DNA of 64,000 nucleotides. Origin: Ornithinimicrobium sp. Its GTDB lineage: Bacteria > Actinomycetota > Actinomycetes > Actinomycetales > Dermatophilaceae. The stretch is from positions 6,636 through 70,635 of the forward strand of contig NZ_JBPCKQ010000114.1 of assembly GCF_051004135.1 (NCBI RefSeq). The letters are read 5' to 3'. The notes beneath the pieces were generated by a model that made no database searches, had not been told where the DNA came from, and saw nothing but the letters and a program-made list of their open reading frames with translations. The position numbers and the translations under genes were made by a program. Each line of letters opens with the position of its first letter. Within the stretch, counting starts at the first letter, position 1. Below are positions 1-63,200 of this stretch, piece after piece.

Positions 1-905
1 GGGGGCTGCAGTCGTTCGACGAAGTCGCGGATCAGGTGGTTGACCTTCACCGGGTCACGGGCGAGCAGCCCGTGGCCGGCACCTTCTAGCAGCACCAACT
101 CGGCCCCGGTCAGCCCGGCGATCCGCTGACCCACGATGGTGCTGCGGATCCGGTCCTGCGTGCCGTGCACCACCAGCACCGGGCAGGTCACCTGCGCGAA
201 GAGCGGCTCCAGGTCCTCGCAGCGCACGTCGTCGCACCCCAGTCGTGCGGCAGTGGCGTCCACCAGCATCTGCGGGTCGGTGTCGGCCGACCAGGCCATG
301 GCGTCCTCGCGCTGCTTGGTCGAGTGCGGCTCGGAGAACATCTGCTCGAAGAAGAACCGCCGGAAGTCGGCGAAGTCGCCCTTCAGCCAGTAGTGCCGGT
401 TGTACTTCGCCCACCCCTGCGTGGTCCCCAGCCGCTCCTCGAAGCCGTGGTGCTCCCGCTCGGGCTGGCTGACGTTGACCCCGCACGAGGGCGACAGCGC
501 CACGACGCCGCTGACCCGTTCGGGCCGGGACTGCGCGGCCAGCAGTGCCCACGTCACCCCGCAGGACAGTCCCACCAGCACGGCCCGATCCGTGCCGGTG
601 GCGTCCAGGACCGCCAGCGCGTCCTGCACCAGCACGTCGTTGGTGTATGCCGCCGCTCCGGCCGGGCGGTCCGAGCCACCGGTGCCCCGGCCGTCGTAGG
701 TGAGCACCCGGTAGTGCCGGGCCAGGTAGGAGACCTGCGCCTTCCAGAAGCGGGAGTCGAAGATCTGCCAGGTGGGCAGCAGCAGCAGGGTGGTCGCACC
801 GCTGCCGTGGACCGCCCAGGACAGGCGCACGCCGTCGTGCTCGGCGACCCCGGTAGCGTCCGGGGGACGGGCCGGAAGGGCCTCCTGCTGCTGCGTAGGT
901 GTCAT
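1..905 (-). CDS. Alpha/beta-fold hydrolase, runs off the left edge (partial; missing from the ORF track because it has no stop in the window)
   Basis: Hand translation from ATG at 905: MTPTQQQEALPARPPDATGVAEHDGVRLSWAVHGSGATTLLLLPTWQIFDSRFWKAQVSYLARHYRVLTYDGRGTG...EGAGHGLLARDPVKVNHLIRDF; frame stays open to position 1. Confidence 0.85.
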   Translation of the reverse strand, partial: MTPTQQQEALPARPPDATGVAEHDGVRLSWAVHGSGATTLLLLPTWQIFDSRFWKAQVSYLARHYRVLTYDGRGTGGSDRPAGAAAYTNDVLVQDALAVLDATGTDRAVLVGLSCGVTWALLAAQSRPERVSGVVALSPSCGVNVSQPEREHHGFEERLGTTQGWAKYNRHYWLKGDFADFRRFFFEQMFSEPHSTKQREDAMAWSADTDPQMLVDATAARLGCDDVRCEDLEPLFAQVTCPVLVVHGTQDRIRSTIVGQRIAGLTGAELVLLEGAGHGLLARDPVKVNHLIRDFVERLQP

Positions 906-912
906 CGCACCC

Positions 913-1992
913 TCACACCCTGACCTCGAAGACGTTGTTGAAGGGCGTGGCGGCCACCGTGCGGAACCGGGTGAACCCGGCGGCCTCGACGACCTGCCGG
1001 ATCCGGGCCGGGCCGGCCTGGGTGCCGAGCGCGGCACCCACGTCCTGGGACAGCGACGCCGGCGTGCACAGCAGCGTGGAGAAGGCGTAGTACACCCGAC
1101 CCACCGCGTTGAGGTTGTCCTCCACGCGGTCGCCGGCGGCCGGTTCGACGATCATCCAGGACCCACCGGGGGCCAGGATGGCGCGCACGTGCCGGGCGGC
1201 GCCGACCGGGTCGCCCATGTCGTGCAGGCAGTCGAACATGGTGACCAGGTCGTAGCCCTCTGCCGGGTGCTCGGCGGCACCCGCGACCTGGAAGTCGACC
1301 CGGCCCGTCAGACCGGCGTCGGCGGCGCGCTCCCGGGCCACGTCGATGGACTCGGCGTGGTAGTCGGTGCCGGTGAACGTGCTGCGCTCGAAGGCCTGGG
1401 CCATCAGCACGGTGGAGGCGCCGTAGCCGCAGCCGATGTCGGCGACCCGTCCGCCGCGGCGCAGGGTCTCCACCACGCCGTCGAGCGCCGGCAGCCAGGT
1501 CGAGGTGAGGCTGTTCAGGTAGCTGGGCCGGAAGAAGCGCTCGCATCCCAGGTGGACGTCGACGTTGTGCTCGTGCCAGCCGTAGCCGGTCTCGCCGCGG
1601 GCAGCGCCGAGGATGGCCGGGGTGTCCCGGATGGTGCCGTGCGCGAGCTGGAACAGGCCGGGCAGGTATGCCGGCGAGGTCTCGTCGGTGAACGCGACCA
1701 CGTGCTCGGGGGGCAGGGTGTAGGTGCCGTCGGCCGGGTCGTACTCCACGTAGTCGCCGGCCGCCTGCGCGTTGAGCCACTCGCGGGCGTACGGCTCACC
1801 GGTGCCGGTGCGCCCGGCGAGATCGGCCGGAGTGAGGGGGCCGGCCTCGGCCATGGCCCGGTAGTAGCCCAGCTCGTCGCCGAGCACCACCAGTGCACCG
1901 TTCAACGCGGCCCCCACCTCCCCTACCGCTCGGAAGACGAAGGACATGAGCTTGTCCTCATCGATGGTGACGGTGTCTGTGGCGAGTGACAT
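913..1992 (-). CDS. Class I SAM-dependent methyltransferase with N-terminal winged-helix domain (Rv2258c-like)
   Basis: VADIGCGYG SAM-binding motif, YAREWL winged-helix segment, FDCLHDMGDP motif. Confidence 0.9.
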   Translation of the reverse strand: MSLATDTVTIDEDKLMSFVFRAVGEVGAALNGALVVLGDELGYYRAMAEAGPLTPADLAGRTGTGEPYAREWLNAQAAGDYVEYDPADGTYTLPPEHVVAFTDETSPAYLPGLFQLAHGTIRDTPAILGAARGETGYGWHEHNVDVHLGCERFFRPSYLNSLTSTWLPALDGVVETLRRGGRVADIGCGYGASTVLMAQAFERSTFTGTDYHAESIDVARERAADAGLTGRVDFQVAGAAEHPAEGYDLVTMFDCLHDMGDPVGAARHVRAILAPGGSWMIVEPAAGDRVEDNLNAVGRVYYAFSTLLCTPASLSQDVGAALGTQAGPARIRQVVEAAGFTRFRTVAATPFNNVFEVRV

Positions 1993-2302: not shown

Positions 2303-3825
2303 ATGACCCCCACTGCCCGCCCGGACGTCGTCGGCGGCACCCCCCAACCGGAGTCGGACTTCTCCGTCCGGGCCGCGCTGCGCTCGCCCAAGCGGCTGCG
2401 CACCGAGGTCCTGGCCGGGCTCGTGGTGGCGCTGGCGCTGATCCCCGAGGCGATCTCGTTTGCCATCCTGGCCGGCGTCGATCCGCGGGTGGGACTGTTC
2501 GCCTCGTTCACCATGGCCGTCACGATCTCGATCGTGGGCGGGCGACGAGGCATGATCTCCGGCGCCACTGCCGCGATCGCCCTGGTCATCGCGCCGGTTG
2601 CTCGCGACTACGGGCTGGACTACCTGATCGCCACCGTCATCCTGGCCGGGATCCTGCAGATCGTGCTCAGCGTGCTGGGTGTCGCCAAGCTCATGCGCTT
2701 CCTGCCGCGCAGCGTGATGGTGGGCTTCGTCAATGCGCTGGCCATCCTGATCTTCAGCGCGCAGGTTCCCACCTGCTCGGCGTTCCGTGGCTGGTCTACC
2801 CGATGGTCGCCGTCGGCCTGCTGTTCATGGTCTACCTGCCCCGGGTGACCGACACCGTGCCGGCCCCGCTGATCGCCATCATCGTGCTGACTGCGACCGT
2901 CATCGTCTTCTCCATCCGGGTCCCCACCGTCGGTGACCAGGGCGAGCTGCCCGACAGCTGGCCCTCCCTCATCTTCCCCGACGTGCCGTTGACGCTGGAG
3001 ACGCTGCAGATCATCGCGCCCTACGCGTTTGCTGCGGCGCTGGTCGGCCTGCTGGAGTCGCTGATGACGGCCAAGCTGGTCGACGACGTCACCGACTCGC
3101 ACTCCATCAAGACCCGCGAGGCCTGGGGTCAGGGAGTCGCCAACGTGGTGACCGGCTTCTTCGGTGGCATGGGCGGCTGCGCGATGATCGGGCAGACGAT
3201 GATCAACGTGAAGGTCTCCGGTGCGCGGACCCGCATTTCGACCTTCCTCGCCGGCGTCTTTCTGCTGGTGCTCGTGGTCGGGCTGGGTGACCTCGTCGCG
3301 ATCATCCCGATGGCTGCCCTCGTGGCCGTGATGATCATGGTCTCGGTCGGCACGATGGACTGGCACAGCGTGCACCCGTCCACCCTGCGCCGGATGCCGG
3401 CCAGCGCCACCACGATCATGCTGACCACGGTTGCGGTGACCGTGTACACCCACAACCTGGCCTACGGCGTCATCTCAGGTGTCGTCGTCGCCATGGTCTT
3501 CTTCGCCCGGCGGGTCTCCCACTTCACCGAGGTCATCGACATCGCGCACCCCGACGAGGACACGCGGGTGTATGCGGTGCGCGGCGTCCTGTTCTTCGCC
3601 TCCAGCAACGACCTGGTCTACCAGTTCGACTACACCGGCGACCCGAACAACATCGTGATCGACCTGAGCGATGCGCAGATCTTCGACTCCTCCACGGTGG
3701 CAGCCCTGGATGCCATCGAGCTGAAGTATCAGCGCAAGGGCAAGCGCGTGGAGATCGTCGGACTCAACACCGCCAGCCAGGCCTGGCACGGGCCGCTGTC
3801 CGGTCAGCTGGGCGCCGGGCACTGA
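2303..3825 (+). pseudogene. SulP-family anion transporter with STAS domain, frameshifted near 2768
   Basis: N-half ([19 protein letters not shown]) is in ORF 2018-2848 and C-half plus STAS in ORF 2803-3825; adding one C to CAGGTTCCC(C)ACCTG restores QVPHLLGVPWLVYPM. Confidence 0.85.
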
Positions 3826-3830
3826 GGTCA

Positions 3831-3864
3831 CGGTTGCGCATCACCTGGGCGTGGGCCGCAACCG
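3831..3864. terminator. Possible hairpin terminator after sulP
   Basis: 8-bp inverted repeat CGGTTGCG/CGCAACCG just after the stop; long loop and no U-tract. Confidence 0.35.
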
Positions 3865-3968
3865 CCGAACCACGATCGTGCGTTTAAGGTGAGACAGCAC
3901 AGACACACAGAGGGGGTCGACGAATGCGGCAGCAAAGGTATGCCGGGGTGCCGCGAGCGCTCCGACGG

Positions 3969-4712
3969 ATGCAGGTCGAGCGACGCGACCTGGTCAAGGG
4001 CGGGCTGGGTCTGATGACCGGCGCCCTGCTCGGCGGTCTCAGCGACGACGGCGACGACTTCATCAAGCCCGAGCCGGAGCCCGAGCTGGAGCCCGAACCC
4101 GAACCCGAACCCGAGTCCACGACATACCGGCGCGGTGACGGGGGAGAGGGGGTCCGTGCCCTCCAGGGGCAGCTCGCGACGGCCGGCTACTGGCTCGGCG
4201 AGGCCGACGGCGGCTACGGCCACCTCACCCAGCAGGCGGTGTTCGCGTGTCAGAAGGCCAATGGCCTGGTGCGCGACGGCGTCGCCGGGCCCAACGTCAA
4301 GCAGGCGCTGGCCACGGCATACCGCCCGGAGCCGGTGGACGGCGGCGACCATGTCGAGGTCCACCTGGACTCCCAGCTGATCCTCCTGGTGCGGGGCGGC
4401 GGCACCAGCATGGTGCTCAACACCTCGACGGCCAACGGCGAGGAGTACGAGTTCAAGGGGCGCACCTACACGGCTCGCACGCCGACCGGCGACTTCGCCG
4501 TGTGGTATGTCGACGGCACCGGCTGGCGGGACGGCGAGCTGGGCGAGATGTGGCGGCCCATGTTCTACAGCGGCAACTACGCGATCCACGGCTCGCGGTC
4601 GATCCCGCCGCAGCCGGCGTCGCACGGGTGCGCACGCGTCTCGGTCGCCGCCATGGACATGATCTGGCGCGACGGACTGATGAGCATGGGCACTCGGGTG
4701 CTCGTGCTGTGA
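3969..4712 (+). CDS. L,D-transpeptidase (YkuD) with peptidoglycan-binding domain and Tat-like signal
   Basis: ERRDLVK twin-arginine, PE-repeat linker, PG-binding YRRGD...LQGQL...DG.YG..T..AV, catalytic HGS...SHGC. Confidence 0.88.
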   Translation: MQVERRDLVKGGLGLMTGALLGGLSDDGDDFIKPEPEPELEPEPEPEPESTTYRRGDGGEGVRALQGQLATAGYWLGEADGGYGHLTQQAVFACQKANGLVRDGVAGPNVKQALATAYRPEPVDGGDHVEVHLDSQLILLVRGGGTSMVLNTSTANGEEYEFKGRTYTARTPTGDFAVWYVDGTGWRDGELGEMWRPMFYSGNYAIHGSRSIPPQPASHGCARVSVAAMDMIWRDGLMSMGTRVLVL

Positions 4713-4954: not shown

Positions 4955-5822
4955 TCGGCGACCTCGACTCGTGCAGCACTCCCATGCTGGTCGAGCCCAG
5001 AACGGCACCGGCCAGGCTGCCTTGACCGTGGGTGCCCAGCACCAGCAGCCCGCCCTGCTCGCCGGCCTGGACCAGACCCTCGACGGGGTGGCCCTCGATC
5101 ACCGTGCCCCTGATCTCGACGTCGTCCAGCGCGGCAGTGGCGCGCTCCAGCAGGTCCTGGTTGACCTTCTCGGCGGTGGCCTTGTGGTCCGCGGCCGCCT
5201 CCTCCACTGAGCTGTAGCCGGCCGGCTTGCGGTTGCCTGAGGGTGGCGCCCAGACGGTGGCCAGCAGCAGGGGGGCGCCCCACTCCCGTGCCACGACTGC
5301 CGCCGCGTCCACGGCACGCTCGGAGCCACCGGTGCCGTTGACCCCGACCACGACCGGGCGCTCGGCGCCCGGCAGCGTGCTGGTGCCGTCCCGGACGATG
5401 ACGACCGGACAGCGGGAGTAGCCGGCGATCGAGTATGCGGTGGAGCCCAGGAGGAGGGTGCCGACCCGGCTGCGCCCGTGGCTGCCGAGGACCATCATCG
5501 AGGCGTGCGTGGACCGCTCACCGAGCGCGACCTTGGCGCTGAACAGCGATCCGGCGGTGTCGACCTCCAGGTCCGGGAAGTCCTCGAGGACCTTGTCCCG
5601 GCCCTCGCCGGCCACCTCCTTGGCATCGGCGATGACCTCCTCGGTCTTCCACAGTCCGCTTCCGGCGTCCTGGGTGTAGGTGATCCGCTCGGCGGCGTGC
5701 AGCACCACCAGCTTGCGGCCCTGGCGGTCGGCGGCCCGGGCGGCCCACTGCAGGGCGGCCTCGGAGGGGGACGAGCCGTCGTAGCCGACGACGATCGGAC
5801 GGTTGGCTGCTACGGATGCCAT
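4938..5822 (-). CDS. Universal stress protein, two USP domains
   Basis: PIVVGYDGS...AAL.WA, VLGSHGRS...LLGSTA, second domain PVVVGVNG...LGTHG...LGSTS; RBS GAAGGAG before ATG 5822. Confidence 0.92.
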   Translation of the reverse strand: MASVAANRPIVVGYDGSSPSEAALQWAARAADRQGRKLVVLHAAERITYTQDAGSGLWKTEEVIADAKEVAGEGRDKVLEDFPDLEVDTAGSLFSAKVALGERSTHASMMVLGSHGRSRVGTLLLGSTAYSIAGYSRCPVVIVRDGTSTLPGAERPVVVGVNGTGGSERAVDAAAVVAREWGAPLLLATVWAPPSGNRKPAGYSSVEEAAADHKATAEKVNQDLLERATAALDDVEIRGTVIEGHPVEGLVQAGEQGGLLVLGTHGQGSLAGAVLGSTSMGVLHESRSPIMVVD

Positions 5823-5929: not shown

Positions 5930-6000
5930 TCAGTCGGCGATCATGAGGGCTCGGACCCGTCATACCCGACGACGACCGGTCGAGTGGGGGAGGATGCCAT
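5930..6000 (-). pseudogene. Remnant of a second, tandem USP gene (first 19 codons fused to last codons)
   Basis: MASSPTRPVVVGYDGSEPS followed out of frame by ATG ATC GCC GAC TGA (MIAD*); RBS region nearly identical to that of the intact USP. Confidence 0.8.
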
Positions 6001-6107: not shown

Positions 6108-7748
6108 ATGGCTCTGACTGATCTCCCCGAGTGGCATGCGCTGACCGAGCACCACGAGCGGGTCAAGGGGGTGCACCTGCGTGACCTGTTCGCCGAGGAT
6201 CCTGGCCGGGGGGAGCGGATGACCGCCGAGGTGGGCGAGCTCTTCCTGGACTACTCCAAGCACCGGGTCACCGACGAGACCCTGCGTCTGCTGGTCGAGC
6301 TCGCCGCGGCCCGCGGGCTACGCGAGCGGACCGAGGCCATGTTCACCGGCGAGCACATCAACACGACCGAGGACCGGGCCGTGCTGCATACCGCATTGCG
6401 GGCCGCGCCCGACGCGACGATCGAGGTCGACGGCGACAACGTCGTGCCCGACGTCCGCGAGGTGCTGGACCGGATGCGGACCTTCGCCGACCAGGTCCGC
6501 AGTGGGGAGTGGACCGGGCACACCGGCCAGCCGATCACTACCGTGGTCAACATCGGCATCGGCGGCTCCGACCTCGGCCCGGCCATGGCCTACCAGGCGC
6601 TGCGCGACCACAGCGACCGCGACCTGGACTTCCGCTTCGTCTCCAACGTCGACGCCACCGACGTCGTCGAGGCCACCCGCGACCTGGACCCGGCCACCAC
6701 GCTGTTCATCATCGCCTCCAAGACCTTCACGACCATCGAGACGCTGACCAACGCGACGACGGCCCGGGAGTGGCTGGTGGCCGCCCTCGGCGACGAGGCG
6801 GTGGCCAAGCACTTCGTCGCGGTCTCCACCGCGGACGACAAGGTCGCCGACTTCGGCATCGACACCGACAACATGTACGGCTTCTGGGACTGGGTCGGCG
6901 GGCGCTACTCCTTCACCTCGGCGATCGGGCTGTCCCTGATGGTGGCCATCGGCCCGGACAGCTATGAGGACATGCTGGCCGGCTTCCGGGAGATGGACGA
7001 GCACTTCCGCACCGCGCCACTGGAGTCCAACCTGCCGGTGCTGATGGGGGTGCTGGGTGTCTGGTACGGCAACTTCTTCGGTGCCGAGACCCACGCGGTG
7101 CTGCCCTACAGCCAGTACCTGAAGCGCTTCCCCGCATACCTGCAGCAGCTGGACATGGAGAGCAACGGCAAGTCGGTCACCCTGGACGGCTCACCGGTCG
7201 GCGTGCAGACCGGCCCGATCGTCTGGGGGGAGCCCGGCACCAACGGCCAGCACGCCTTCTACCAGCTCATCCACCAGGGCACCAAGCTCGTGCCGGCCGA
7301 CTTCATCGGGGTGGTGCAGCCGTTCCACCCCGGCGAGGGGTCTCTGGGTGACCACCACGACCTGCTGACGGCCAACCTGTTCGCGCAGACCGAGGCCCTC
7401 GCCGGCGGCAAGACGGCCGAGGAGGTCGAGGCGGACGGGGCCACCGGCTCGCTGGTGGCGCACAAGACCTTCCAGGGCAACAGCCCCACCTCGACGCTGC
7501 TGGTCGACCGGCTGACCCCGCACACCCTCGGGATGCTGGTCGCGCTCTATGAGCACAAGGTCTTCGTGCAGGGCGTGATCTGGGGCATCAACAGCTTCGA
7601 CCAGTGGGGCGTCGAGCTCGGCAAAGTGCTCGCCAAGGTGATCGAGCCCGAGCTCACTGCCGACGAGGCGCCGGAACTCGACCACGACGCCTCCACCAAC
7701 GCGCTGATCCGCCGCTACCGCGCGGCGCGGGGTCGCTCGACCGACTGA
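6108..7748 (+). CDS. pgi: Glucose-6-phosphate isomerase
   Basis: [68 protein letters not shown]. Confidence 0.98.
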
Positions 7749-7756
7749 GGCGAACC

Positions 7757-9241
7757 TCAGCTGTGAGCACCCAGCTCGCTCAGGCTCGCCTCCTGCATAC
7801 TGCCCTGGTCGTCGCTCCACCGCACGGTGCCCGACCCAGCCGCCAGGTCGGCCCGCAGCTCGGCCACGGCGTCGCCCTGCCGCCACGTCATCGTCAACGT
7901 GTCCTTGCCCCCCTCGGTCTCCAGCTCGCCGTCGAACGCCGCGTGCGAGCCGCGCAGCCGGATCAGACCGAACAAGGCCCGCACCACCGGACGCTGCACG
8001 GACTCCTGCACCTCCTCGCGGGTGTAGTGCGCTCGGTTGACGTCGCGGCCGATCCCGGTCCGCTCCAGCTCGTCGGTGTCGTTGCGGCCGGCGAGCAGCC
8101 CGACGTAGTAGACCTGCGGGATGCCCGGGGTCCAGAACTGCAGGGCACGCGCCAGCAGATAGCGGTCGTCGTCGGCTCCCAGGGCGTCGTAGAAGGTGCA
8201 GTTGACCTGGTAGAGGTCGACGTTGGAGGCCGCGGCGCCGGTGGCGTCCTTGGAGGTGCCGCCGCTGGCCTCGTGGATCGAGTCGACCAGCGCGTCGATC
8301 TGCTCCGGGGTGAGCAGCCCCTCCCGGGACGGGTCGTTGCCGTCGGCGCCGACGTCGATCACCCCGATGCCGTCGTGGGTGTCCAGCACCGTGATGGAGT
8401 TGGTGGGGCGCACGTCCAGCCAGGCCAGCAGCGGGTCGGCGTCGGCCTCGTGCAGCGCGTGCAGGATCAGCGGCGGGAGCGCGAAGTCGTAGACGTAGTC
8501 GACCTGCGCCGCGATCTCGACCTGCCGCTGGTAGTAGGAGTGCACCTCGACCAGCACGGTCAGCTCCCGCTCGTGACACCAGGCGCTGATCTCGTCGATG
8601 AAGTCGAACGTCTCGGGGGTCATGAACGAGGTCAGCCCCGGTGTCTTCACCGCATACCCGACCGCGTCGAGCCGCACCCGGCTGACCTTCGCCTGCGCCA
8701 GCGCCTCGACCACCCGCAGCAGGTAGTCGCGGGTCACCTGCTGGCGCACGTCGAGGTCGATCTGCTCGCCGGTGAAGGTCGTCCAGATCAGCCGCTTGGT
8801 GCCGTTCTCGCGCGTGTAGGGGGTGAACGGCAGGCCGGGACGGGGGCGGTAGAGCAGCATCAGCTGCTCCTCGGTCGCGCCGTCCGGGAACGCGCCGTCA
8901 TAGGTCAAGAACATGCCGGCGTATGCCGAGTCCTCGCCCTTGTCCAGCCAGTCCTGGAACTGCACGGACGAGGAGGAGACGTGGTTGACGATGACATCGA
9001 CCATGACGTCGTGGGTTTCTCCGATGGCCGCCACGTCGTCCCAAGAGCCGAGTCTCTCGTCGACCTCGGTATGGTCCTGCGGGTCGAAGCCCGCGTCGGC
9101 CCCGTCGTAGGGGCGGAAGAACGGCAGCAGGTGCACGCCGTTGAACAGACCCTCCAGCGGACCGTCCAGCACCTGCTGCAGCGTGCGGAGGTCACCGCCC
9201 AGGCGGTCGGCATACGCGATCAGCTCGACGTCGTGCGGCAC
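7757..9241 (-). CDS. gtfA: Sucrose phosphorylase (GH13_18)
   Basis: GVHLLPFF, DAGFDP, RLDAVGY, VEVH, TVLDTHDGIG; specificity loops YRPRP and SNVDLYQVN as in Bifidobacterium sucrose phosphorylase. Confidence 0.88.
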   Translation of the reverse strand: MPHDVELIAYADRLGGDLRTLQQVLDGPLEGLFNGVHLLPFFRPYDGADAGFDPQDHTEVDERLGSWDDVAAIGETHDVMVDVIVNHVSSSSVQFQDWLDKGEDSAYAGMFLTYDGAFPDGATEEQLMLLYRPRPGLPFTPYTRENGTKRLIWTTFTGEQIDLDVRQQVTRDYLLRVVEALAQAKVSRVRLDAVGYAVKTPGLTSFMTPETFDFIDEISAWCHERELTVLVEVHSYYQRQVEIAAQVDYVYDFALPPLILHALHEADADPLLAWLDVRPTNSITVLDTHDGIGVIDVGADGNDPSREGLLTPEQIDALVDSIHEASGGTSKDATGAAASNVDLYQVNCTFYDALGADDDRYLLARALQFWTPGIPQVYYVGLLAGRNDTDELERTGIGRDVNRAHYTREEVQESVQRPVVRALFGLIRLRGSHAAFDGELETEGGKDTLTMTWRQGDAVAELRADLAAGSGTVRWSDDQGSMQEASLSELGAHS

Positions 9242-9800: not shown

Positions 9801-9920
9801 GCGTCCAGCCTGTCATGCAGCATGCCGGCCCCGGAGCGGTCGCCGGAAGCCGTTGCGGTGGAGCGGCTCCTGCCGTGACGTCATACTCGAGATTCCTCGG
9901 ACCAGCACGGAGGTGAGGTC

Positions 9921-12470: not shown

Positions 12471-12761
12471 CTGCCCTGCGCGGTGCACGGACTGGGTGCG
12501 CAGCCGGTGCTGGGGCCGCTGGCCGGGTTGCGCGAGCACGACGAGCGCACCGGCACGGCATACCTGCAGACGCTGGCCGCCTGGCTGGACCACCCGGGCG
12601 AGCCGGGTATGGACGCCCGGGCCCTCCACGTCCACCCCAACACCGTGCGCTACCGGATGCAGCGGATGGCCGAGCTGGTCGAGCTGGCCCTCGCCGACCC
12701 GGAGGTCCGGCTCGCCCTGCAGCTGCAGCTGCGCGCGCTCGGTATGCCCTCGCCTGGCTGA
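12471..12761 (+). pseudogene. C-terminal HTH fragment of a PucR-family regulator
   Basis: LREHDERTGTAYLQTLAAWLDHPG...ARALHVHPNTVRYRMQR...RLALQLQL; no N-terminal domains. Confidence 0.85.
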
Positions 12762-18334: not shown

Positions 18335-18461
18335 GTGTCATCCCATCGACAGCGGTTCGGACGGCTTCGACCCAGGGGGTATGCCGATCTTCCACCCCAT
18401 CATGAGTGACAGGGGCGACCAACACGACCACGAACACGCCCGGCTGAGGCAGAGTGTCCCC

Positions 18462-37383: not shown

Positions 37384-37408
37384 CGCCGACCAACTGACGA
37401 TCTACGGT

Positions 37409-39557: not shown

Positions 39558-39610
39558 AGGCCCGACTATCGCAGGAGGGGCTGACGTATGCCGATGAGGC
39601 GTCTCCCCGG

Positions 39611-53261: not shown

Positions 53262-53786
53262 GTGAGCACCGAGGACGTGCCCGTGCTGCTGCACCGGTTG
53301 GACGAGGGGCTCCCCGTGCCGGCTCAGGCCCACCCCGGGGACGCCGGCCTGGACCTGCACGCGCGCGACGGCGTGGACCTGGCGCCCGGGGAACGGGCCC
53401 TGGTGGGCACCGGGGTCGCGCTCGCCCTGCCGCACGGCTATGCGGGCTTCGTGCACCCCCGCTCCGGGCTGGCCGCCCGGCACGGCATCACCATCGTCAA
53501 CGCCCCCGGCACACTCGATGCCGGCTACCGCGGCGAGATCAAGGTCTGCCTGCTCAACACCGACGCCCGCGAGGCGTTCACGGTGCGCCGAGGGGACCGC
53601 ATCGCCCAGCTCGTGGTGCAGCCGATCTGCTCGGTGGCCTTCACGACCGTGGCCCGGCTGCCCGGCAGCGACCGAGGCCTGCAGGGGCACGGCGACTCCG
53701 GGGGGTTCGGCGGCGTCCCGATTGCCGACCCCACCCGCCCAGCCGGCGCCGATCCGACATACCCCGCTTCGACCAGCAAGGACTGA
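53262..53786 (+). CDS. dut: dUTP diphosphatase
   Basis: [37 protein letters not shown]. Confidence 0.95.
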
Positions 53787-54865: not shown

Positions 54866-55541
54866 GGCCGATCCGGCCGCCGAGGAGGTGCGCGCGGTCC
54901 AGACGGTGGAGGCGGTCATCCGGTCCCGGCTGTCCGAGCTGCTCGGCGGATGGTACGGCTCGATCGAGACGGCGCTGCCGACGGCGGTCTTCGTCGTCGT
55001 CTGGCTCTGGCGCGACGAGGTGCGTCCGGCTCTGCTGGCGGCAGCGGCCATCACTCTGATCCTGATCGGGGTGCGGCTGGCCATCGGCGGATCGCTGCGC
55101 TACGTGCTGTCCTCACTCGTCGGCATCGCGCTGGCGGCGTTCTTCGCGCTGCGCAGTGGCAACGCGCAGGATGCCTTCCTGCCCGGAATCCTGGCCAGCA
55201 TGGGGTACGGCGTGCTGGCGCTGGTCTCGATCGTGACCCGGTGGCCGATGATCGGCTTCCTGGTCGCCGCGGGCGACCCGCACTACGCCGAGCATCCCAC
55301 CGCCTGGCGGCGGGATGCTCCGCTGGTGGCTGTCTGCGCCCGGCTGACCTGGGTGCTGGCGGCGCTGTTCGCGATCCGGGTGGCGATCATGCTGCCGCTC
55401 TACCTGGCCGCCGAGGTGGCCTGGCTCGGAGTCGCCAAGATCACGCTGGGCTGGCCGGCATACCTGATCGCCGTGCTGGTCATGGGGATCATGCTGACCA
55501 CCGGTCGCACGCCGGTCCAGGACCCGGCGACGGAGGAGTAG
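54858..55541 (+). CDS. DUF3159 membrane protein
   Basis: GG..GSIETALPT.VF, FLPGIL, RWP.IG, LGWP. Confidence 0.88.
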   Translation: MSEADPAAEEVRAVQTVEAVIRSRLSELLGGWYGSIETALPTAVFVVVWLWRDEVRPALLAAAAITLILIGVRLAIGGSLRYVLSSLVGIALAAFFALRSGNAQDAFLPGILASMGYGVLALVSIVTRWPMIGFLVAAGDPHYAEHPTAWRRDAPLVAVCARLTWVLAALFAIRVAIMLPLYLAAEVAWLGVAKITLGWPAYLIAVLVMGIMLTTGRTPVQDPATEE

Positions 55542-56988: not shown

Positions 56989-58983
56989 ATGGCTCTTCCG
57001 CGGCGGTTGCTTGAGCGTGCCTTCATCGGTCGCGCGCTGCGCAGCGACCGGTTGAGCGACACCCTGCTGCCCAAGCGGCTGGGTATGCCGGTCTTCGCCA
57101 GCGACGCCCTGTCCTCGGTGGCCTACGCCCCCGACGAGATCGTGCTGACCCTGGCGCTGGCCGGTGGCGCAGCCGTGTTCTACCAGTCCTGGGAGGTCAC
57201 CCTCGCGGTGTGCCTGGTGATGGCGGTCATCGTGGCGTCCTACCGGCAGAACGTGCGTGCCTACCCCAGCGGCGGGGGTGACTACGAGGTCGCCACGGTC
57301 AACCTCGGTCACACGGCCGGCCTGGGGGTCGGCGCCGCGCTGATGGTCGACTACGTGCTCACCGTCGCCGTCTCGGTCTCCGCCGGCGTGCAGAACGCCG
57401 CCTCCGCGCTGGAGTTCGTGCGCGGCTACGAGGCCGCTGTCGCCGCGGGGCTGGTGGCCCTGCTGACCCTGCTCAACCTGCGCGGTGTGCGCGAGTCGGG
57501 CCGGGCGCTGGCCGTGCCCGTCTACGCCTTCCTCGGCTCGCTCGCCCTGATGATCGGGGTCGGCATGGTGCAGTGGGCCACCGGCTCGCTGGCCCGCGCC
57601 GAGAGCGCCCGGTACGAGCTGCTGCCGGCACCGGGCTACGACACGCTGACCGCCTTCGGCCTCGGCGTGCTGATCCTGCGAGCCTTCGCCTCCGGCACGG
57701 TCGCGCTCACCGGGGTGCAGGGCGTGGCCAACGGTGTCCCGGCGTTCCAGCGGCCCAAGAGCCGCAACGCCGCGACCGTGCTGCTGGTCATGGCGGCCAT
57801 CTCCATCACGATCTTGCTCACGGTCATCTCTTTGGTGCGCGCCTCCGGCATCCAGATGGCGGTGGAGCCGCAGGAGCAGCTGCGCTTCGAGGGGGAGCCG
57901 GTCGGCCCCGACTTCGTGCAGGACACGGTGCTCAGCCAGGTGGCCGAGGTGGTCTTCGGTCCCGAGAGCCTGGGGTTGCTGCTGGTCTCGATCACCACCG
58001 GCGTGATGCTCGTGGTGGCCGCGAACACCGCCTTCAACGGCTTCCCCCAGCTGACCTCGCGGCTGTCCCGGGACGGCTTCCTGCCCAGCATCCTGCACAG
58101 CCGCGGACTGCGGCTGGCCTACTCCAACGGCATCCTGCTGCTGGCCGCCGGTGCCCTGGCCCTGGTGCTCATCTACCAGGCGACCGTCACCGAGCTGATC
58201 CAGATGTATCTGGTGGGGGTGTTCATCTCGTTCACGATCAGCCAGATCGGGATGGTCCGTCACTGGAACCGGCAGATGCGTCTGGAGCTGGCCCTGTGGG
58301 CCCGGCGAAGCAAGCAGCGCAGCCGGGCGATCAACATCGTGGGTGCCACCGTCTCCGCGACCGTGCTGGTCGTGGTGATCGTCACCCGCTTCACCCAAGG
58401 AGCAGGCCTGGCCCTGCTCGCAATCGCGACCCTCTGGATGGTGATGACCGTGGTCTACCGGATGCACCGTGACATCGCGCAGGAGACAGCGCTACCACAG
58501 GACGAGCGGGTGCAGCCGGTGCCCTCCCGTGTCTCCGTGCTGGTCTACCTCGAGCGGCTGGACCGCCCGGCCATGCAGGCCATCGCCTACGCCCGGGCGC
58601 TGCGCCCGCACGTCCTGGAGGCCGTGCACGTCGACCTCGCCCCGGAGCCCAGCCAGGCGCTGCGCGAGGACTGGGACCGGCACGACATTCCGGTCACCCT
58701 GCGCTTCCTGGAGTCGCCCTACCGGGAGACCGTGCGCCCCGTGGTCGACTACGTGCGCCGACTGCACCGGGACCGTCCGCGAGACATCGTGGTGGTCTAC
58801 CTGCCCGAGTTCGTCTCGGCCAACCCGGTGGTGCGCTGGGTCCGGGACCGCAGTCAGGACCGGCTGCAGCGCGAGCTGATGCGCACACCGGGGGTCGTGG
58901 TGGCGAGCGTTCCGTGGCAGGGCTCCTCGCTGGAGGGCAAGGGCGAGGAGCAGGGCGAGCCGAGCTCGAGCCGTGCCGACTGA
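56989..58983 (+). CDS. APC-family permease (KimA/YdaO-like, probable K+ or amino-acid importer)
   Basis: FASDALSSVAYA, SYRQ...AYPSGGGDY, LTGV.GVANGVP.F, ANTAFNGFP, C-terminal cytoplasmic domain. Confidence 0.9.
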   Translation: MALPRRLLERAFIGRALRSDRLSDTLLPKRLGMPVFASDALSSVAYAPDEIVLTLALAGGAAVFYQSWEVTLAVCLVMAVIVASYRQNVRAYPSGGGDYEVATVNLGHTAGLGVGAALMVDYVLTVAVSVSAGVQNAASALEFVRGYEAAVAAGLVALLTLLNLRGVRESGRALAVPVYAFLGSLALMIGVGMVQWATGSLARAESARYELLPAPGYDTLTAFGLGVLILRAFASGTVALTGVQGVANGVPAFQRPKSRNAATVLLVMAAISITILLTVISLVRASGIQMAVEPQEQLRFEGEPVGPDFVQDTVLSQVAEVVFGPESLGLLLVSITTGVMLVVAANTAFNGFPQLTSRLSRDGFLPSILHSRGLRLAYSNGILLLAAGALALVLIYQATVTELIQMYLVGVFISFTISQIGMVRHWNRQMRLELALWARRSKQRSRAINIVGATVSATVLVVVIVTRFTQGAGLALLAIATLWMVMTVVYRMHRDIAQETALPQDERVQPVPSRVSVLVYLERLDRPAMQAIAYARALRPHVLEAVHVDLAPEPSQALREDWDRHDIPVTLRFLESPYRETVRPVVDYVRRLHRDRPRDIVVVYLPEFVSANPVVRWVRDRSQDRLQRELMRTPGVVVASVPWQGSSLEGKGEEQGEPSSSRAD

Positions 58984-60286
58984 GTCGCCCGGGCCGGCCG
59001 CGCCGGAGGTGGGGGACCGGGTCGAGCTGAGCATCGGGCGCTGGGCACACGGTGGGCACGGCGTGGCCCGGTATGCCGGGCGCGTCGTCTTCGTGCGGCA
59101 CACCCTCCCAGGCGAGCGGGTCGTCGCCGAGGTCACCGGGTCTGGCAAGGGCGGGCGCTTCCTGCGCGCCGACGCAGTGCACGTCCTGCAGGCGGCACCG
59201 GAGCGGGTGCCACCGCCGTGCCCGTGGTCCGGGCCCGGCCGGTGCGGGGGGTGCGACCTGCAGCATGTGGACCTCGCGGCGCAGCGCCGGCTCAAGGCCG
59301 GGGTGGTGGCAGAGCAGCTCAGCCGCCTCGCCGGGGTGGACCTGGCCGTGCAGCTCGGCGAGGAGGTGGTCTGCGAGCCGGTGCCGGGCGACGAGGACGG
59401 GCTCGGTTGGCGGACCCGGGTGGAGTTCGCGGTGGACGAGGACGGTCGTCCGGGGCTGCGCCGACACCGCTCGAGGGAGGTGGTGCCGGTCGACGACTGC
59501 CTGATCGCCGACCGGCGGGTGATCGGGACCGGGGTGCTCGGCCGGCGGCACCCGGACGTCGAGGCGCTCGACGTCATCGCCCCCGGGGCCGGTCCGGCCG
59601 TCGTCGTCCCGCTGCCGGCGCGGGACTCGCAGGTCCCCACGGTGGTCGAGCCGGTCGAGCTGGGCCGCGACGGGGACGGTGACCCGGACATCGTGGAGTT
59701 CGGGGTTGCCGCCCGCGGCTTCTGGCAGGTGCACCCCGGGGCCGCCGCGACGTTCGTGGCGACCGTGCTGGCCGGGCTGGACCCACAGCCGGGGGAGTCG
59801 GCCCTGGACCTGTATGCCGGGGTCGGGCTGTTCGCCGCGGCGCTGGCCGAGCGGGTCGGACCGACGGGGGAGGTGGTCGCCGTCGAGTCGGACCCGGTGG
59901 CCGTGCAGCACGGCCAGGACAACCTGCGGCACTGGCCGCACGCCGAGCTGCGCCGGGACCGGGTCGACCGGGCGGTGCGCGTGATGAGTCGGCAGGGCAC
60001 GGGGGAGCGCTGGGACCTGGTGGTGCTCGACCCACCCCGCATCGGTGCGGGGCGACGGGTCGTCGAGGGCGTGGTCGCGCTGGGTCCGCGAGCGGTCGCC
60101 TACGTGGCCTGTGACCCGGCTGCCCTCGGCCGCGACACGGCATACCTGGTCGGGCTGGGGTGGGCCCTGACCCGGCTGCGGGTGCTGGACGCCTTCCCGA
60201 TGACCCACCACGTGGAGTGTGTGGCCGTGTTCGAGCCGGTGCGACAGACTGGTGGCCTGGGTGCGCCCGGCGCGCGACCGCGGTAG
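58973..60286 (+). CDS. TRAM-domain RNA (uracil-5)-methyltransferase, RlmD/TrmA-like
   Basis: HGGHGVAR, C......CGGC..QH, FWQVH, DLYAGVGLF, LDPPR, YVACDPA, DAFPMTHHVEC. Confidence 0.9.
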   Translation: MPTESPGPAAPEVGDRVELSIGRWAHGGHGVARYAGRVVFVRHTLPGERVVAEVTGSGKGGRFLRADAVHVLQAAPERVPPPCPWSGPGRCGGCDLQHVDLAAQRRLKAGVVAEQLSRLAGVDLAVQLGEEVVCEPVPGDEDGLGWRTRVEFAVDEDGRPGLRRHRSREVVPVDDCLIADRRVIGTGVLGRRHPDVEALDVIAPGAGPAVVVPLPARDSQVPTVVEPVELGRDGDGDPDIVEFGVAARGFWQVHPGAAATFVATVLAGLDPQPGESALDLYAGVGLFAAALAERVGPTGEVVAVESDPVAVQHGQDNLRHWPHAELRRDRVDRAVRVMSRQGTGERWDLVVLDPPRIGAGRRVVEGVVALGPRAVAYVACDPAALGRDTAYLVGLGWALTRLRVLDAFPMTHHVECVAVFEPVRQTGGLGAPGARPR

Positions 60287-60288: not shown

Positions 60289-60308
60289 TTATCTTGACGT
60301 CAAGATAA
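60289..60308. promoter_or_regulatory. Perfect 20-bp palindrome (operator) upstream of acnA
   Basis: TTATCTTGACGTCAAGATAA is its own reverse complement; abuts a -10-like TAGAGT at 60284-60289. Confidence 0.75.
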
Positions 60309-60338
60309 GCGTTCAGGACGGATGCAAAGGAGCACGGG

Positions 60339-63200
60339 ATGAGTGGGACGAACAGTTTCGGAGCGTTGGGGAGCCTGGAGGTCGGTGACGCGAGCTACCA
60401 GATCTATCGCCTGAGGGGGGTCGAGGGTCTCGAGGAGGCCGCCGACCTGCCCTACTCGCTCAAGGTGCTGCTGGAGAACCTGCTGCGCACCGAGGACGGC
60501 GAGAACATCACCGCCGACCACGTCCGGGCGCTCGCCGAGTGGGACGCCGACGCGGAGCCGGACACCGAGATCCAGTTCACGCCGGCCCGGGTGATCATGC
60601 AGGACTTCACCGGGGTGCCGTGCATCGTCGACCTGGCGACCATGCGCGAGGCGATGTCGGAGCTGGGGGGCGACCCCGACAAGATCAACCCGCTGGTGCC
60701 CACCGAGCTCGTGATCGACCACTCGGTGATCGTCGATGTGTTCGGCCGGCCCGACGCGTTCGAGCGCAACGTGGAGATCGAGTACCAGCGCAACGGGGAG
60801 CGCTACCAGTTCCTTCGCTGGGGGCAGAAGGCGTTCGAGGACTTCAAGGTCGTGCCGCCGGGCACGGGCATCGTGCACCAGGTCAACATCGAACACCTGG
60901 CCCGCTCGGTGATGACGCGGGACATCGACGGGTCCGTCACGGCATACCCCGACACCTGCGTGGGCACCGACAGCCACACCACCATGGTCAACGGGCTCGG
61001 CGTGCTCGGCTGGGGCGTCGGCGGGATCGAGGCAGAGGCCGCGATGCTCGGTCAGCCCGTCTCCATGCTGATCCCACGGGTGGTCGGCTTCAAGCTGAGC
61101 GGGTCGATCCCGGCCGGCGCCACCGCGACCGACGTGGTGCTGACGATCACCGAGATGCTGCGCGAGCACGGCGCCGTCGGCAAGTTCGTCGAGTTCTACG
61201 GCAAGGGCGTCTCCGCCGTGCCGCTGGCCAACCGGGCCACCATCGGCAACATGTCCCCGGAGTTCGGCTCGACCTGCGCGATCTTCCCGATCGACGAGGT
61301 GACCCTGGAGTACCTGCGGCTGACCGGGCGCTCCGACGAGCAGGTCGACCTGGTCGAGGCCTACGCCAAGGAACAGGGGATGTGGCTGGCCGACGGGGAG
61401 ACGCAGGAGGCGCGCTACAGCGAGCGCCTCGAGCTGGACCTGTCGACCGTCGTGCCCTCGATCGCCGGGCCGAAGCGGCCGCAGGACCGGGTCGACGTCT
61501 CGCGGGCCAAGGAACAGTTCCGCTCCGACCTGCGCAACTACGTCGACCACCACGACCCGGACCACACGGGCAACTCCTCGGCGCTGGACGACGAGATCGA
61601 GAGCAGCTTCCCTGCCTCGGACTCCCCGTCGCACGACGCGACCGATGACCAGACCGCGGCTGCGCGGCCCAAGCTGACGCCGGTCCCGGACGGCGGGGTG
61701 GGTGACCGCGTCAGCAAGCCGGTGCCGGTGACCGTCGACGGCCAGACCTTCGAGATCGACCACGGCATCGTCTCGATCTCCTCGATCACCAGCTGCACCA
61801 ACACCTCCAACCCCTCGGTGATGATGGCCGCGGCGATGCTGGCCAAGAACGCCGTGGACCGCGGGCTGACCGTGCCGCCGTGGGTCAAGACCTCGATGGC
61901 ACCCGGCTCCAAGGTGGTCACCGGCTACTTCGAGGCGGCCGGCATGTGGCCCTACCTGGAGAAGCTGGGCTACCACCTGGTCGGCTACGGCTGCACCACG
62001 TGCATCGGCAACTCCGGGCCGCTGGTCGAGGAGATCTCGGCAGCGATCAACGACAACGACCTGGCCGTCACCTCGGTGCTGTCCGGCAACCGCAACTTCG
62101 AGGGCCGGATCAACCCCGACGTGCAGATGAACTACCTGGCCTCGCCGCCGCTGGTCATCGCCTACGGCCTGGCCGGCACGATGGACTTCGACTTCGAGAC
62201 CGAGCCGCTGGGTGTCGACACCGAGGGCAGCGAGGTGTTCCTGAGCGACATCTGGCCGGACGCCGACGAGGTGGAGCGGACCATCGCGGGGTCGATCTCG
62301 CGGCAGATGTTCACCGACGACTACTCCGACGTCTTCGCCGGTGACGAGCGGTGGAAGGGCCTGCCCACCCCCGAGGGCGGCACCTTCGACTGGGCGCAGG
62401 ACTCGACCTACGTGCGCAAGCCTCCGTACTTCGACGGGATGGGCGCCGAGCCCGAGGCGGTGACCGACATCGAGGGTGCCCGGGTGCTGGCGCTGCTGGG
62501 CGACTCGGTCACCACCGACCACATCAGCCCCGCGGGCTCGATCAAGGCCGACAGCCCGGCCGGGCGCTACCTGGCCGACCACGGCATCGAGCGCAAGGAC
62601 TTCAACTCCTACGGCTCCCGGCGTGGCAACCACGAGGTGATGATCCGCGGCACGTTCGCCAACATCCGGCTGCGCAACCTGCTGCTCGACGGGGTCGAGG
62701 GTGGTTTCACCCGCAACCTGCTGGAGGACGACAGCGATGCCGAGCCGGTCGCCATCTTCGACGCGGCGCAGGCGTATGCCGAGGCGCAGGTGCCGCTGGT
62801 CGTGCTCGCGGGCAAAGAGTATGGGTCCGGCTCCTCGCGCGACTGGGCGGCCAAGGGCACCCGGCTGCTCGGGGTCAAGGCGGTCATCGCGGTGTCCTAC
62901 GAGCGGATCCACCGGTCCAACCTGATCGGGATGGGCGTGCTGCCGCTGCAGTTCCCCGAGGGTGAGAGCGCCGAGTCGCTTGGCCTGGACGGGACCGAGA
63001 CGTTCTCGATCAGCGGCGTCACGGAGCTGAGCGACGGCATACCGGACACCGTGCGCGTCACTGCGGCACGCAGTGGTAGCGGCGACGCCGGCGGCGACGC
63101 CGTGGAGTTCGACGCGGTTGTGCGCATCGACACCCCCGGCGAGGCCGCCTACTACCGCAACGACGGGATCTTGCAGTACGTCCTGCGTTCCCTCACCTGA
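60339..63200 (+). CDS. acnA: Aconitate hydratase A
   Basis: [67 protein letters not shown]. Confidence 0.98.

Follow-up and report, generated by a model that had tools for sequence, protein, structure and literature searches.

A genome-wide, non-palindromic DNA word of Dermatophilaceae that may be a self-DNA signal read on one strand

Introduction

Why does the genome of an Ornithinimicrobium, like those of many Dermatophilaceae, carry one short DNA word about once per kilobase? The question arises from a 64,000-nt stretch of Ornithinimicrobium sp. (GTDB lineage Bacteria; Actinomycetota; Actinomycetes; Actinomycetales; Dermatophilaceae), namely positions 6,636 to 70,635 of the forward strand of contig NZ_JBPCKQ010000114.1, assembly GCF_051004135.1 (hereafter the window), in which a sequence-only reading had counted about 55 copies of the hexamer GCATAC or its complement GTATGC.

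Results

That count was exact, and the coordinates listed with it match; the plus strand of the window carries 25 GCATAC and 30 GTATGC, against a zero-order expectation of 17.5, and the same-composition control GCATAG/CTATGC occurs 2 + 3 times, which confirms the over-representation. Genome-wide, 2736 copies of GCATAC compare with 573-1039 expected under Markov orders 0-3. The hexamer did not hold up as the unit; it is the core of a longer word of 8-11 bases with two tolerant positions, CGGCATAC, in its fuller form CACGGCATACC. In the position matrix around CATAC, C occupies position -3 in 86-91% of cases, G is preferred to C at -2 and to A at -1, A is found at -4 (41%) and C at +1 (54-57%). 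This family-specific word can be written C-[G>C~T]-[G>A>T>C]-CATAC, CACGGCATACC being its consensus, and 53 of the 55 window hexamers lie within C-B-G-CATAC. Six positions of CGGCATAC are essential and two graded, a pattern as would be expected for a site read by a protein; one-off variants at the essential positions are no more frequent than expected (2394 observed, 2440 expected) and form no halo. Copies in the window are listed below by coordinates, strand and form.

645..652, minus, CGGCATAC
1666..1673, minus, CGGCATAC
3570..3577, minus, CCGCATAC variant
3938..3945, minus, CGGCATAC
4120..4127, plus, CGACATAC variant
4315..4322, plus, CGGCATAC
4505..4512, minus, CGACATAC variant
5433..5440, minus, CCGCATAC variant
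5958..5965, plus, CGTCATAC variant
6384..6391, plus, CTGCATAC variant
7132..7139, plus, CCGCATAC variant
7793..7800, plus, CTGCATAC variant
8650..8657, plus, CCGCATAC variant
8921..8928, minus, CGGCATAC
9208..9215, plus, CGGCATAC
9879..9886, plus, CGTCATAC variant
12556..12563, plus, CGGCATAC
15471..15478, minus, CGACATAC variant
15525..15532, minus, CGGCATAC
18379..18386, minus, CGGCATAC
19109..19116, minus, CGGCATAC
19336..19343, plus, CGGCATAC
21250..21257, minus, CCGCATAC variant
24426..24433, plus, CGGCATAC
25293..25300, minus, CGGCATAC
25609..25616, plus, CGACATAC variant
25698..25705, minus, CCGCATAC variant
25835..25842, plus, CCGCATAC variant
26679..26686, minus, CTGCATAC variant
29266..29273, plus, CGGCATAC
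30239..30246, minus, CTGCATAC variant
31305..31312, plus, CTGCATAC variant
31520..31527, minus, CGGCATAC
32061..32068, plus, CGGCATAC
32912..32919, plus, CGGCATAC
33722..33729, plus, CCGCATAC variant, left arm of a close inverted pair inside a gene
33734..33741, minus, CTGCATAC variant, right arm of the same pair
34251..34258, plus, CCGCATAC variant
35356..35363, minus, CGGCATAC
35757..35764, plus, CCTCATAC variant
36533..36540, minus, CGACATAC variant
36788..36795, plus, CGACATAC variant
37407..37414, minus, CGGCATAC
38672..38679, plus, CGGCATAC
39586..39593, minus, CGGCATAC
40715..40722, minus, CCGCATAC variant
41944..41951, plus, CGGCATAC
43164..43171, minus, CCGCATAC variant
44304..44311, minus, CGGCATAC
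45748..45755, minus, CGGCATAC
46122..46129, plus, CGACATAC variant
50070..50077, plus, CGGCATAC
50461..50468, minus, CGGCATAC
52157..52164, minus, CGGCATAC
52315..52322, plus, CGGCATAC
53755..53762, plus, CGACATAC variant
55456..55463, plus, CGGCATAC
57083..57090, minus, CGGCATAC
59071..59078, minus, CGGCATAC
59812..59819, minus, CGGCATAC
60138..60145, plus, CGGCATAC
60940..60947, plus, CGGCATAC, within the aconitase gene
62774..62781, minus, CGGCATAC, within the aconitase gene
63035..63042, plus, CGGCATAC, within the aconitase gene
63279..63286, plus, CGACATAC variant, downstream of aconitase

Relative to dinucleotide shuffles of the window, exact CGGCATAC occurs 36 times against 1.27 +/- 1.13, and CBDCATAC 65 times against 6.0 +/- 2.4. 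CGGCATAC is the strongest 8-mer outlier of the 3.53-Mb genome (1736 observed, 85-137 expected, z >130). A codon-preserving shuffle, in which the amino acids and codon pool of each gene are kept, had been named beforehand as a possible refutation; under it the excess persists, with 1367 copies of CGGCATAC against 154 +/- 12 (8.9-fold, z 97) and 2087 of GCATAC against 622 +/- 22, and the control GCATAG is depleted (239 observed, 356 expected).

CGGCATAC occurs in all six reading frames and also in DNA without a called ORF; 22% of its copies lie in DNA not assignable to an ORF. Its favoured frames encode Tyr-Ala and Ala-Tyr. Protein sites that permit the word are filled by it at 18-55%, by way of the rare codons TAT, ATA and GTA: occupancy by the exact word is 55% at X-Y-A-[ADEGV] sites, 54% at RHT, 46% at VCR (GTA required) and 18% at X-G-I-[HLPQR] (ATA required). 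Although the word makes up 0.75% of the genome, its copies contain 38% of the TAT and 40% of the ATA codons, as the earlier claim that copies force rare codons would have it. Action at the DNA level and active maintenance, both proposed in that reading, were likewise borne out.

The two orientations of CGGCATAC are equally common genome-wide (879 and 857 copies), with no heterogeneity among contigs (p 0.98) and a correlation with GC skew of -0.03, and they are balanced also in genomes G249, G017, G104 and G221. Because the word has no replication polarity it is neither a KOPS nor a classical Chi site, and the earlier argument from lack of strand skew stands. In a relative, a different word, GTGGGGGA, is skewed 17:1.

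Copies in the same orientation avoid one another over distances up to about 0.8 kb, whereas copies in opposite orientation do not: below 600 bp, same-orientation pairs reach 0.5-0.7 of expectation and opposite-orientation pairs 1.0-1.2, convergent pairs lying close to expectation and divergent pairs slightly above it. For adjacent copies 20-800 bp apart the probability of sharing an orientation is 0.35, against 0.556 +/- 0.065 for 120 control words, independently of gene boundaries; the corresponding values are 0.31 for another genus, 0.40 for G017, 0.25 for G221 and, with no clear strand alternation, 0.46-0.54 for G104, which uses the dialect CGGCGTAC. Permissive sites are occupied at 0.28 where a same-strand neighbour lies within 500 bp, at 0.38 where there is none and at 0.51 where the neighbour is on the opposite strand.

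The word is confined to Dermatophilaceae, with control levels in 234 genomes from 21 further families of the order, and we found no report of it from Actinobacteria in the literature; its description as a lineage-specific, non-palindromic, genome-wide motif was thus correct. Within the family its distribution is bimodal. Other lineages carry 1000-4200 copies of the single-letter dialects CGGCATCC and CGGCGTAC, and close relatives may be entirely without the word; in one genome of the same genus, with 73.6% GC, 152 kb contain 2 copies. On an aconitase tree at least 6-9 changes are required. Where a relative is without the word, the orthologous position shows CGGCGTAG, CGGCGTAC or CGGCGAAG; creation of the word therefore takes two synonymous steps, sometimes with a Phe-to-Tyr change. 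Only 23-35% of sites are common to a same-genus genome.

Among the 9-15 kb tracts that lack the word are contigs encoding an integrase, an IS30-like HTH protein and a group II intron reverse transcriptase; contigs bearing integrase, transposase or intron have no copies. In relatives, the full 11-mer stands in inverted pairs that fold into hairpins immediately 3' of the aconitase stop codon (-44.7 kcal/mol, z -8.3).

No protein that reads the word was found among the candidates. ComEC, an import channel, is encoded in this genome, and ComEC together with T2SSE-type (pilus-type, Tad/T4P-type) ATPases occurs whether or not a genome carries the word; AdnAB is universal and shows no association with the word, and RecBCD is absent from this genome (RecC was not found). 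No column of AdnA, AdnB or ComEC was linked to the trait beyond permutation, in a test that predates the finding of the dialects. Documented natural transformation in Dermatophilaceae was not found in the literature. DNA methyltransferases were searched as three families, PF01555, PF00145 and PF02384; this genome (G000) lacks PF01555 and PF00145, its sole PF02384 match is a type I HsdM, and no member of these families occurs in carriers G074, G084 and G335. Nor is any single-step precursor depleted as a product of deamination or very-short-patch repair would require (CGGCGTAC 0.74-0.95, CGGCACAC 0.6-0.8, CGGCATGC 0.8-0.9; each about 140-340 copies against 1736). The methylation-linked variants of the earlier proposal, repair included, thus found no support.

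Discussion

The reading we favour, tentatively and at a probability of roughly 40%, is that the word marks self DNA: it would be read on a single strand, and a drive tied to recombination would spread it, much as with an uptake sequence or Chi. Neisseria and Haemophilus have self-DNA tags that it resembles, and the likeness to an uptake sequence seen earlier was well founded. The DUS of Neisseriaceae (PMC3630211) and USS of Pasteurellaceae (PMC1939737) are likewise short, non-palindromic, present about once per kilobase, equal in both orientations without replication polarity, located within genes in every frame, some frames being favoured, missing from recently acquired DNA, varied by single-letter dialects among relatives, and paired as hairpins after genes. 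Unlike them, the word belongs to a Gram-positive actinobacterium without documented competence and shows orientation-specific interference between neighbours, whereas the uptake receptors known so far are reported to be orientation-blind (PMC1939737); and DUS dialects follow phylogeny (PMC3630211), whereas the word is patchy between close relatives.

Chi, the regulatory word of RecBCD/AddAB, is an over-represented 5-8-mer enriched in core DNA; a moving enzyme reads it on a single strand, and such reading would account for the word's separate series on each strand. The Chi sites known so far are polar, and the word has no replication-strand skew; RecC is absent here, the ubiquitous AdnAB shows no trait-linked feature, and the 12-20-fold excess, as far as we know, clearly surpasses that of Chi sites described so far. 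KOPS/SRS, which orient FtsK/SpoIIIE, are also asymmetric 8-mers read by a DNA-handling protein, but KOPS are strongly skewed toward the terminus. HIP1 (GCGATCGC) of cyanobacteria is a family-level 8-mer in large excess imposed on coding DNA (PMC5861425); it is palindromic and its sites are reported to be conserved between genomes, whereas the word is asymmetric and strand-alternating and its sites turn over.

A mere by-product of composition, codon-pair or amino-acid usage, to which the Tyr-Ala and Ala-Tyr frames might point, is refuted by the synonymous shuffle and by the near-absence from the same-genus genome of 73.6% GC; the excess also survives the Markov and dinucleotide-shuffle nulls, the word is found in all frames, and we give this account practically no credence. 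A classical uptake sequence, bound as double-stranded DNA and in either orientation by a surface receptor (pilus- or ComEA-associated) and spread by uptake bias alone, would match the density, equal orientations, use of all frames, absence from mobile DNA, dialects and hairpin pairs, as well as the presence of ComEC and Tad/T4P-type ATPases. The model for such a receptor is ComP, which binds DUS, and we know of no ComP-like receptor for the word. We consider this reading unlikely, since an orientation-blind receptor predicts interference for either orientation, whereas depletion is seen only for neighbours in the same orientation, and the tested competence genes do not vary with the trait.

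It is quite unlikely that the word is bound by an abundant protein that structures the chromosome, with selection on resident DNA preserving the sites: the very high copy number and the graded tolerance of two positions would suit a protein site, but 65-77% of sites are not common within the genus, very close relatives can differ by loss or switching of the trait, site-by-site selection would hardly raise occupancy to 55% in the face of codon bias, and same-strand exclusion has no evident reason. The precedent is HIP1, with a 15-300-fold excess and such a proposed role (PMC5861425). A methylation- or repair-linked word, maintained by an orphan methyltransferase with biased very-short-patch-type repair or serving as a one-strand mark of old and new DNA, is improbable given the family searches, the undepleted precursors and orthologous states mostly two steps away; a one-strand mark does need independent, evenly spaced series on each strand, as observed, and the CpG-transition product of the dialect CGGCGTAC is CGGCATAC. 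HIP1, by contrast, is reportedly linked to methyltransferases (Elhai 2015). Equally hard to credit is a loading or recognition word for a translocase that would move chromosomal double-stranded DNA between cells and spread the word by transfer bias, on the model of FtsK-like TraB of actinomycete conjugative elements with its 8-bp clt repeats; gamma domains of FtsK/TraB read asymmetric 8-mers, and a distribution so patchy and labile would suit a mobile driver, yet a directional pump predicts depletion of convergent pairs also, against what was found.

The favoured self-DNA signal, working like DUS/USS or a non-polar Chi, fits neither class cleanly, known uptake receptors being reported as orientation-blind and known Chi sites being polar. 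The complete word would be recognised, strand-specifically or directionally, by a protein acting during DNA import or end processing for homologous recombination. Reading on one strand would give each strand its own series of copies, and a new copy would gain little where the same strand already has one inside a single tract of processing or recombination, about 0.8 kb long, which would explain depletion in the same orientation and none in the opposite. Upkeep would rest on molecular drive, not on benefit site by site: recognised in this way, DNA bearing the word would be recombined more often into relatives, and the word would spread.

The over-represented hexamer is the core of a longer word

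By exact count, the plus strand of the window carries 25 copies of GCATAC and 30 of GTATGC against a zero-order expectation of 17.5, and five of the control GCATAG/CTATGC; the hexamer excess described in the sequence-only reading is real, and the copies lie at the positions it listed. The excess also holds genome-wide: in G000, the Ornithinimicrobium genome holding the window (3.53 Mb in 253 contigs, 70.3% GC, with the window on contig C114), 2736 hexamers were counted where Markov nulls of orders 0-3 predict 573-1039. The hexamer is nevertheless not the unit that it had been taken for, since 53 of the 55 window copies sit within the longer C-B-G-CATAC. A position matrix gave C at -3 of CATAC in 86-91% of copies, A at -4 in 41% and C at -5 in ~52%; adjacent to CATAC, G was preferred over C at -2 and over A at -1, and C was found at +1 in 54-57%. 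The consensus of the full word is CACGGCATACC. The matrix was flat beyond -5 and +1, with no conservation of the kind expected from an extended REP- or MITE-type repeat.

The 8-mer CGGCATAC, hereafter the word, is the strongest 8-mer outlier of the genome, AT-island noise aside: Markov nulls predict 85 copies (order 2) or 137 (order 3), and 1736 are present. A one-mismatch scan revealed that positions 1 and 4-8 are essential; variants at these positions occurred at 0.4-2.6 of expectation and, when pooled, numbered 2394 against 2440 expected, leaving no halo of one-off sequences. At position 2, G was preferred, followed by C or T, and A was not tolerated; at position 3, preference fell in the order G, A, T, C. 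The window holds 36 exact copies of the word (1.27 ± 1.13 expected) and 65 of the variant family CBDCATAC (6.0 ± 2.4 expected). Dense arrays, which might mark a regulator gene, were not found in G000, where the maximum was 6 copies per 400 bp.

Only one close inverted pair of copies was found in the window:

33722-33741: two variant copies, CCGCATAC-tccg-GTATGCAG, within the ORF at 33355-33957 and not after a gene

Immediately 3' of the aconitase stop codon, Knoellia aerolata and a Dermatophilaceae metagenome-assembled genome (MAG) each have two full-consensus copies in inverted arrangement, which form a hairpin (-44.7 kcal/mol, z -8.3). Separately, the palindrome GTGCGCAC was seen 10 times in 13 kb, against 1.0 expected, at G072:C1:3714800-3727800 (locus L150), in a genome which uses the alternative word CGGCGTAC.

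The excess is maintained under coding-sequence nulls

A crude codon-likelihood method called 2224 ORFs in G000, covering 74% of the genome. Within them the word occurred 1367 times, against 154 ± 12 after within-gene synonymous codon shuffling (z 97) and 68 under a codon permutation null; GCATAC occurred 2087 times against 622 expected, and the control GCATAG was depleted. The excess thus withstands the synonymous shuffling which, according to the sequence-only reading, might have abolished it. Copies were found in all six frames, with 608 as G-TAT-GCC-G on the coding strand, 330 as N-CG-GCA-TAC and 50-124 in each of the remaining four; by these crude gene calls, a further 388 (22%) lay outside ORFs. 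The claim that copies force otherwise rare codons was also borne out; word copies span 0.75% of the genome yet contain 38% of its TAT codons and 40% of its ATA codons. Occupancy was defined as the share of sites carrying the exact word where the peptide permits it by synonymous change.

Occupancy of permissive peptide sites by the exact word in G000
X-Y-A-[ADEGV]: 55%
RHT: 54%
VCR: 46% (GTA required)
[CGRS]MP: 34%
[APST]AY: 33.5%
X-G-I-[HLPQR]: 18% (ATA required; DGIP 19/25, HGIP 17/20)

Neighbouring copies avoid the same orientation

The word is balanced between the strands of G000 (879 vs 857; contig heterogeneity p 0.98), and its orientation is uncorrelated with GC skew (-0.03), in agreement with the earlier statement that there is no strand skew and hence no Chi- or KOPS-type polarity. 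Balance was found in every G000 contig and in 50-100-kb bins of the compared genomes G249, G017, G104 and G221. A strong polarity in two genera was considered and rejected as a display artefact; match listings showed '+' only for some genomes, but the DNA itself was balanced (122/117 in G104, 20/22 in G221). As a side observation, the G-rich 8-mer GTGGGGGA occurs 17 times on the plus strand of G221:C1:1-100000 (loci L200-L204) vs 1 for its complement; it is a candidate for the family's true polar word of the KOPS type.

Neighbouring copies nonetheless favoured opposite orientations. Same-orientation pairs less than 600 bp apart occurred at 0.5-0.7 of the random expectation, which was regained by ~1 kb; opposite-orientation pairs stood at 1.0-1.2, and at 1.3-1.5 for the exact word at 200-600 bp. 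Adjacent copies 20-800 bp apart shared orientation with a probability of 0.35, vs 0.556 ± 0.065 for 120 control words of similar abundance, the next lowest of which gave 0.456. This alternation was seen inside genes, between genes whatever their strand, and in unassigned DNA. Three further genomes replicated it: G249 (another genus, 400 kb; 0.31), G017 (same genus, complete; 0.40) and G221 (0.25, n=20). Occupancy of permissive sites also varied with the neighbours within 500 bp: it was 0.38 where there was no neighbour, 0.28 beside a same-orientation copy, 0.51 beside an opposite-orientation copy and 0.35 where both were present. Among pairs less than 100 bp apart in G000, convergent arrangements exceeded divergent ones (108 vs 69). 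The strand-wise exclusion argues, in our view, for a directional or single-strand reading of the word, whereby each strand would need its own series of copies and little would be gained from a second one in the same tract.

Some tracts of G000 lack the word

At about one copy per kb expected, five tracts of 9-15 kb in G000 are free of the word; they are probably recently acquired DNA:

C72: carries a phage-type (tyrosine) integrase
C160: word-free tract
C63: carries an IS30-like HTH protein and a SARP-type regulator
C27, first 9 kb: carries a group II intron reverse transcriptase
C145:42460-51588: carries a sarcosine-oxidase-like cluster

The word and its dialects are patchy within one family

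In a first sample, 380-2340 copies were found in 24/24 genomes of the same genus; the window's aconitase shares 85% identity with its Ornithinimicrobium sediminis counterpart. The word was at control level in sixteen genomes of sixteen other families, and none of the 234 genomes of 21 other families in an order-wide sample exceeded control. Within Dermatophilaceae (301 genomes, 67 genera), counts were bimodal, from ~20 to 5400, and they varied within genera. Some relatives instead carry a single-letter alternative, or dialect. CGGCATCC reaches 3300-4200 copies (baseline 450-650) in G075, G058, G096, G054 and Humibacillus sp. DSM 29435, and CGGCGTAC reaches 1000-3900 (baseline 150-600) in G072, G104, G101, G077, G236, G073, MAG AS08 and Pedococcus sp. 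5OH_020. Some lineages have none of the three, among them the same-genus genome G323, two Janibacter species and Intrasporangium calvum; no replacement word was found in G323, whose leading 8-mers are only 4-5-fold enriched. In another genome of 70% GC, AAAAAAAA/TTTTTTTT numbers 1037 in 400 kb (G249:C1:1-400000, loci L081-L100), a count which indicates at least one very long run of A or T, either an assembly oddity or an unusual element.

Carriage in large excess, the trait, requires at least 6-9 changes on the aconitase tree. It differs even between very close relatives, as in Terrabacter terrae (0.75 copies per kb) and Intrasporangium zincisolvens (0.04). Sites common to T. terrae and Humibacillus xanthopallidus are missing in I. 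zincisolvens, indicating loss of the trait followed by fast decay. Turnover is likewise evident against G017, with which only 23-35% of sites are shared at 74% nucleotide identity (random 8-mers are identical at 17.6%). Where relatives lack CGGCATAC at an orthologous site, they mostly have CGGCGTAG, CGGCGTAC or CGGCGAAG; on the coding strand, C-TAC-GCC-G or C-TTC-GCC-G changes to G-TAT-GCC-G. Gain of the word takes two synonymous steps to worse codons, at times plus a Phe-to-Tyr replacement, and several routes converge on it. The strength of the excess, the speed of change and the multiple routes of origin, together with the missing one-off halo, the absence of the word from foreign DNA and the existence of dialects, point to a drive which recognises the finished word, and not to site-by-site selection or mutational bias.

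Candidate readers and methyltransferases

RecBCD was rejected as the protein that reads the word; RecC (PF04257) is missing from G000 and its presence is uncorrelated with the trait. RecBCD is patchy in the family (27/74 genomes), and RecC is present in four other same-genus genomes (G012, G017, G020 and G323). ComEC and T2SSE ATPases were found in 74/74 genomes tested and, because both are universal, their presence or absence is uninformative. An ORF upstream of comEC, considered as ComEA, resembled by eye a DegV-family protein and gave no information on ComEA. Carriers and non-carriers alike have an intact AdnA/AdnB pair (UvrD helicase and PD-(D/E)XK nuclease domains). No column of AdnA, AdnB (N-terminal half) or ComEC was associated with the trait beyond permutation, although this test was weak because the carrier/non-carrier split predated the dialects and the negative class still contained dialect carriers. 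AdnA itself (C119:2572-9054, locus L135; loci L155-L184) shows ~50% identity between G000 and other genomes of the genus, vs ~80% for aconitase, so that, judged by sequence, this resection nuclease evolves unusually fast here.

Profile (HMM) searches for methyltransferases covered three families, PF01555, PF00145 and PF02384. G000 had neither PF01555 nor PF00145, and its one PF02384 match was a type I HsdM. In three carriers, G074, G084 and G335, all three families were missing. The methyltransferase link put forward in the sequence-only reading found no support among the families searched. An origin as a deamination or very-short-patch repair product of GCATGC or CGGCGTAC was rejected, given that these precursors are too little depleted and too few and that the orthologous states are usually two steps off. 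The palindrome GCATGC (the SphI site) is itself about two-fold under-represented in G000 (1634 vs ~3250 expected).

Discussion

To our knowledge, few genome-wide signature words have a known function, these being DUS, USS, Chi and KOPS, and HIP1 has gone unexplained for decades. DUS has a dedicated receptor, the minor pilin ComP. Most statistical hallmarks of DUS/USS are shared by the word: hyper-abundance (1736 vs 85-137), equal orientations (879/857) with no replication polarity, occurrence in all frames and in non-coding DNA, scarcity in recently acquired DNA, and dialects in related lineages (CGGCATCC, CGGCGTAC). In DUS/USS, dialects (PMC3630211) and a lack of orientation bias (PMC1939737) have been described. 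The word is unlike them in its host, its orientation-specific interference and its patchiness. Chi is skewed with replication, whereas the word is balanced in every contig. HIP1 is a palindrome (PMC5861425), whereas the reverse complement of CGGCATAC is GTATGCCG, and a related word that is palindromic, GGCATGCC, shows no excess (226 vs 308-340 expected). A literature search on these 8-mers, on uptake sequences in Actinobacteria and on an AdnAB Chi found no report of the word and nothing relevant.

Our tentative preference, at a probability of about 0.4, is for a self-DNA signal linked to recombination and read during import or end processing. A classical uptake receptor would account for the hallmarks shared with DUS/USS; being orientation-blind, it sits poorly with the orientation-specific interference, and we consider it unlikely. 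That interference, the strand-wise exclusion, is a concrete and testable constraint on any mechanism, including a nucleoid-protein site, as also suggested from the sequence at the outset, to which we give a slightly smaller chance. KOPS and SRS are strongly biased toward the terminus on both replichores, a skew that the word lacks. That it serves a conjugative translocase seems to us very unlikely. A link to methylation or repair, with G074, G084 and G335 carrying the word and none of the families searched, is just as unlikely.

On the favoured reading as a self-DNA signal, CGGCATAC and its dialects might be the first sequence-specific signal of this type for gene exchange beyond Proteobacteria, read on a single strand at import or end processing, steering homologous recombination toward kin across a Gram-positive actinobacterial family and, by being switched or lost between close relatives, raising recombination barriers; we hold this fuller proposal to be possible but rather doubtful. 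In practice, the word skews codon-usage statistics and marks foreign DNA in these genomes. Across an actinobacterial family it takes up as much as half of all permissive sites, and even close relatives can differ in dialect; were it to decide which DNA recombines, it would amount to sequence-tagged kin recognition in Gram-positive bacteria. The Dermatophilaceae include wastewater phosphorus removers, and the proposal, if true, would provide a handle on gene flow in the family.
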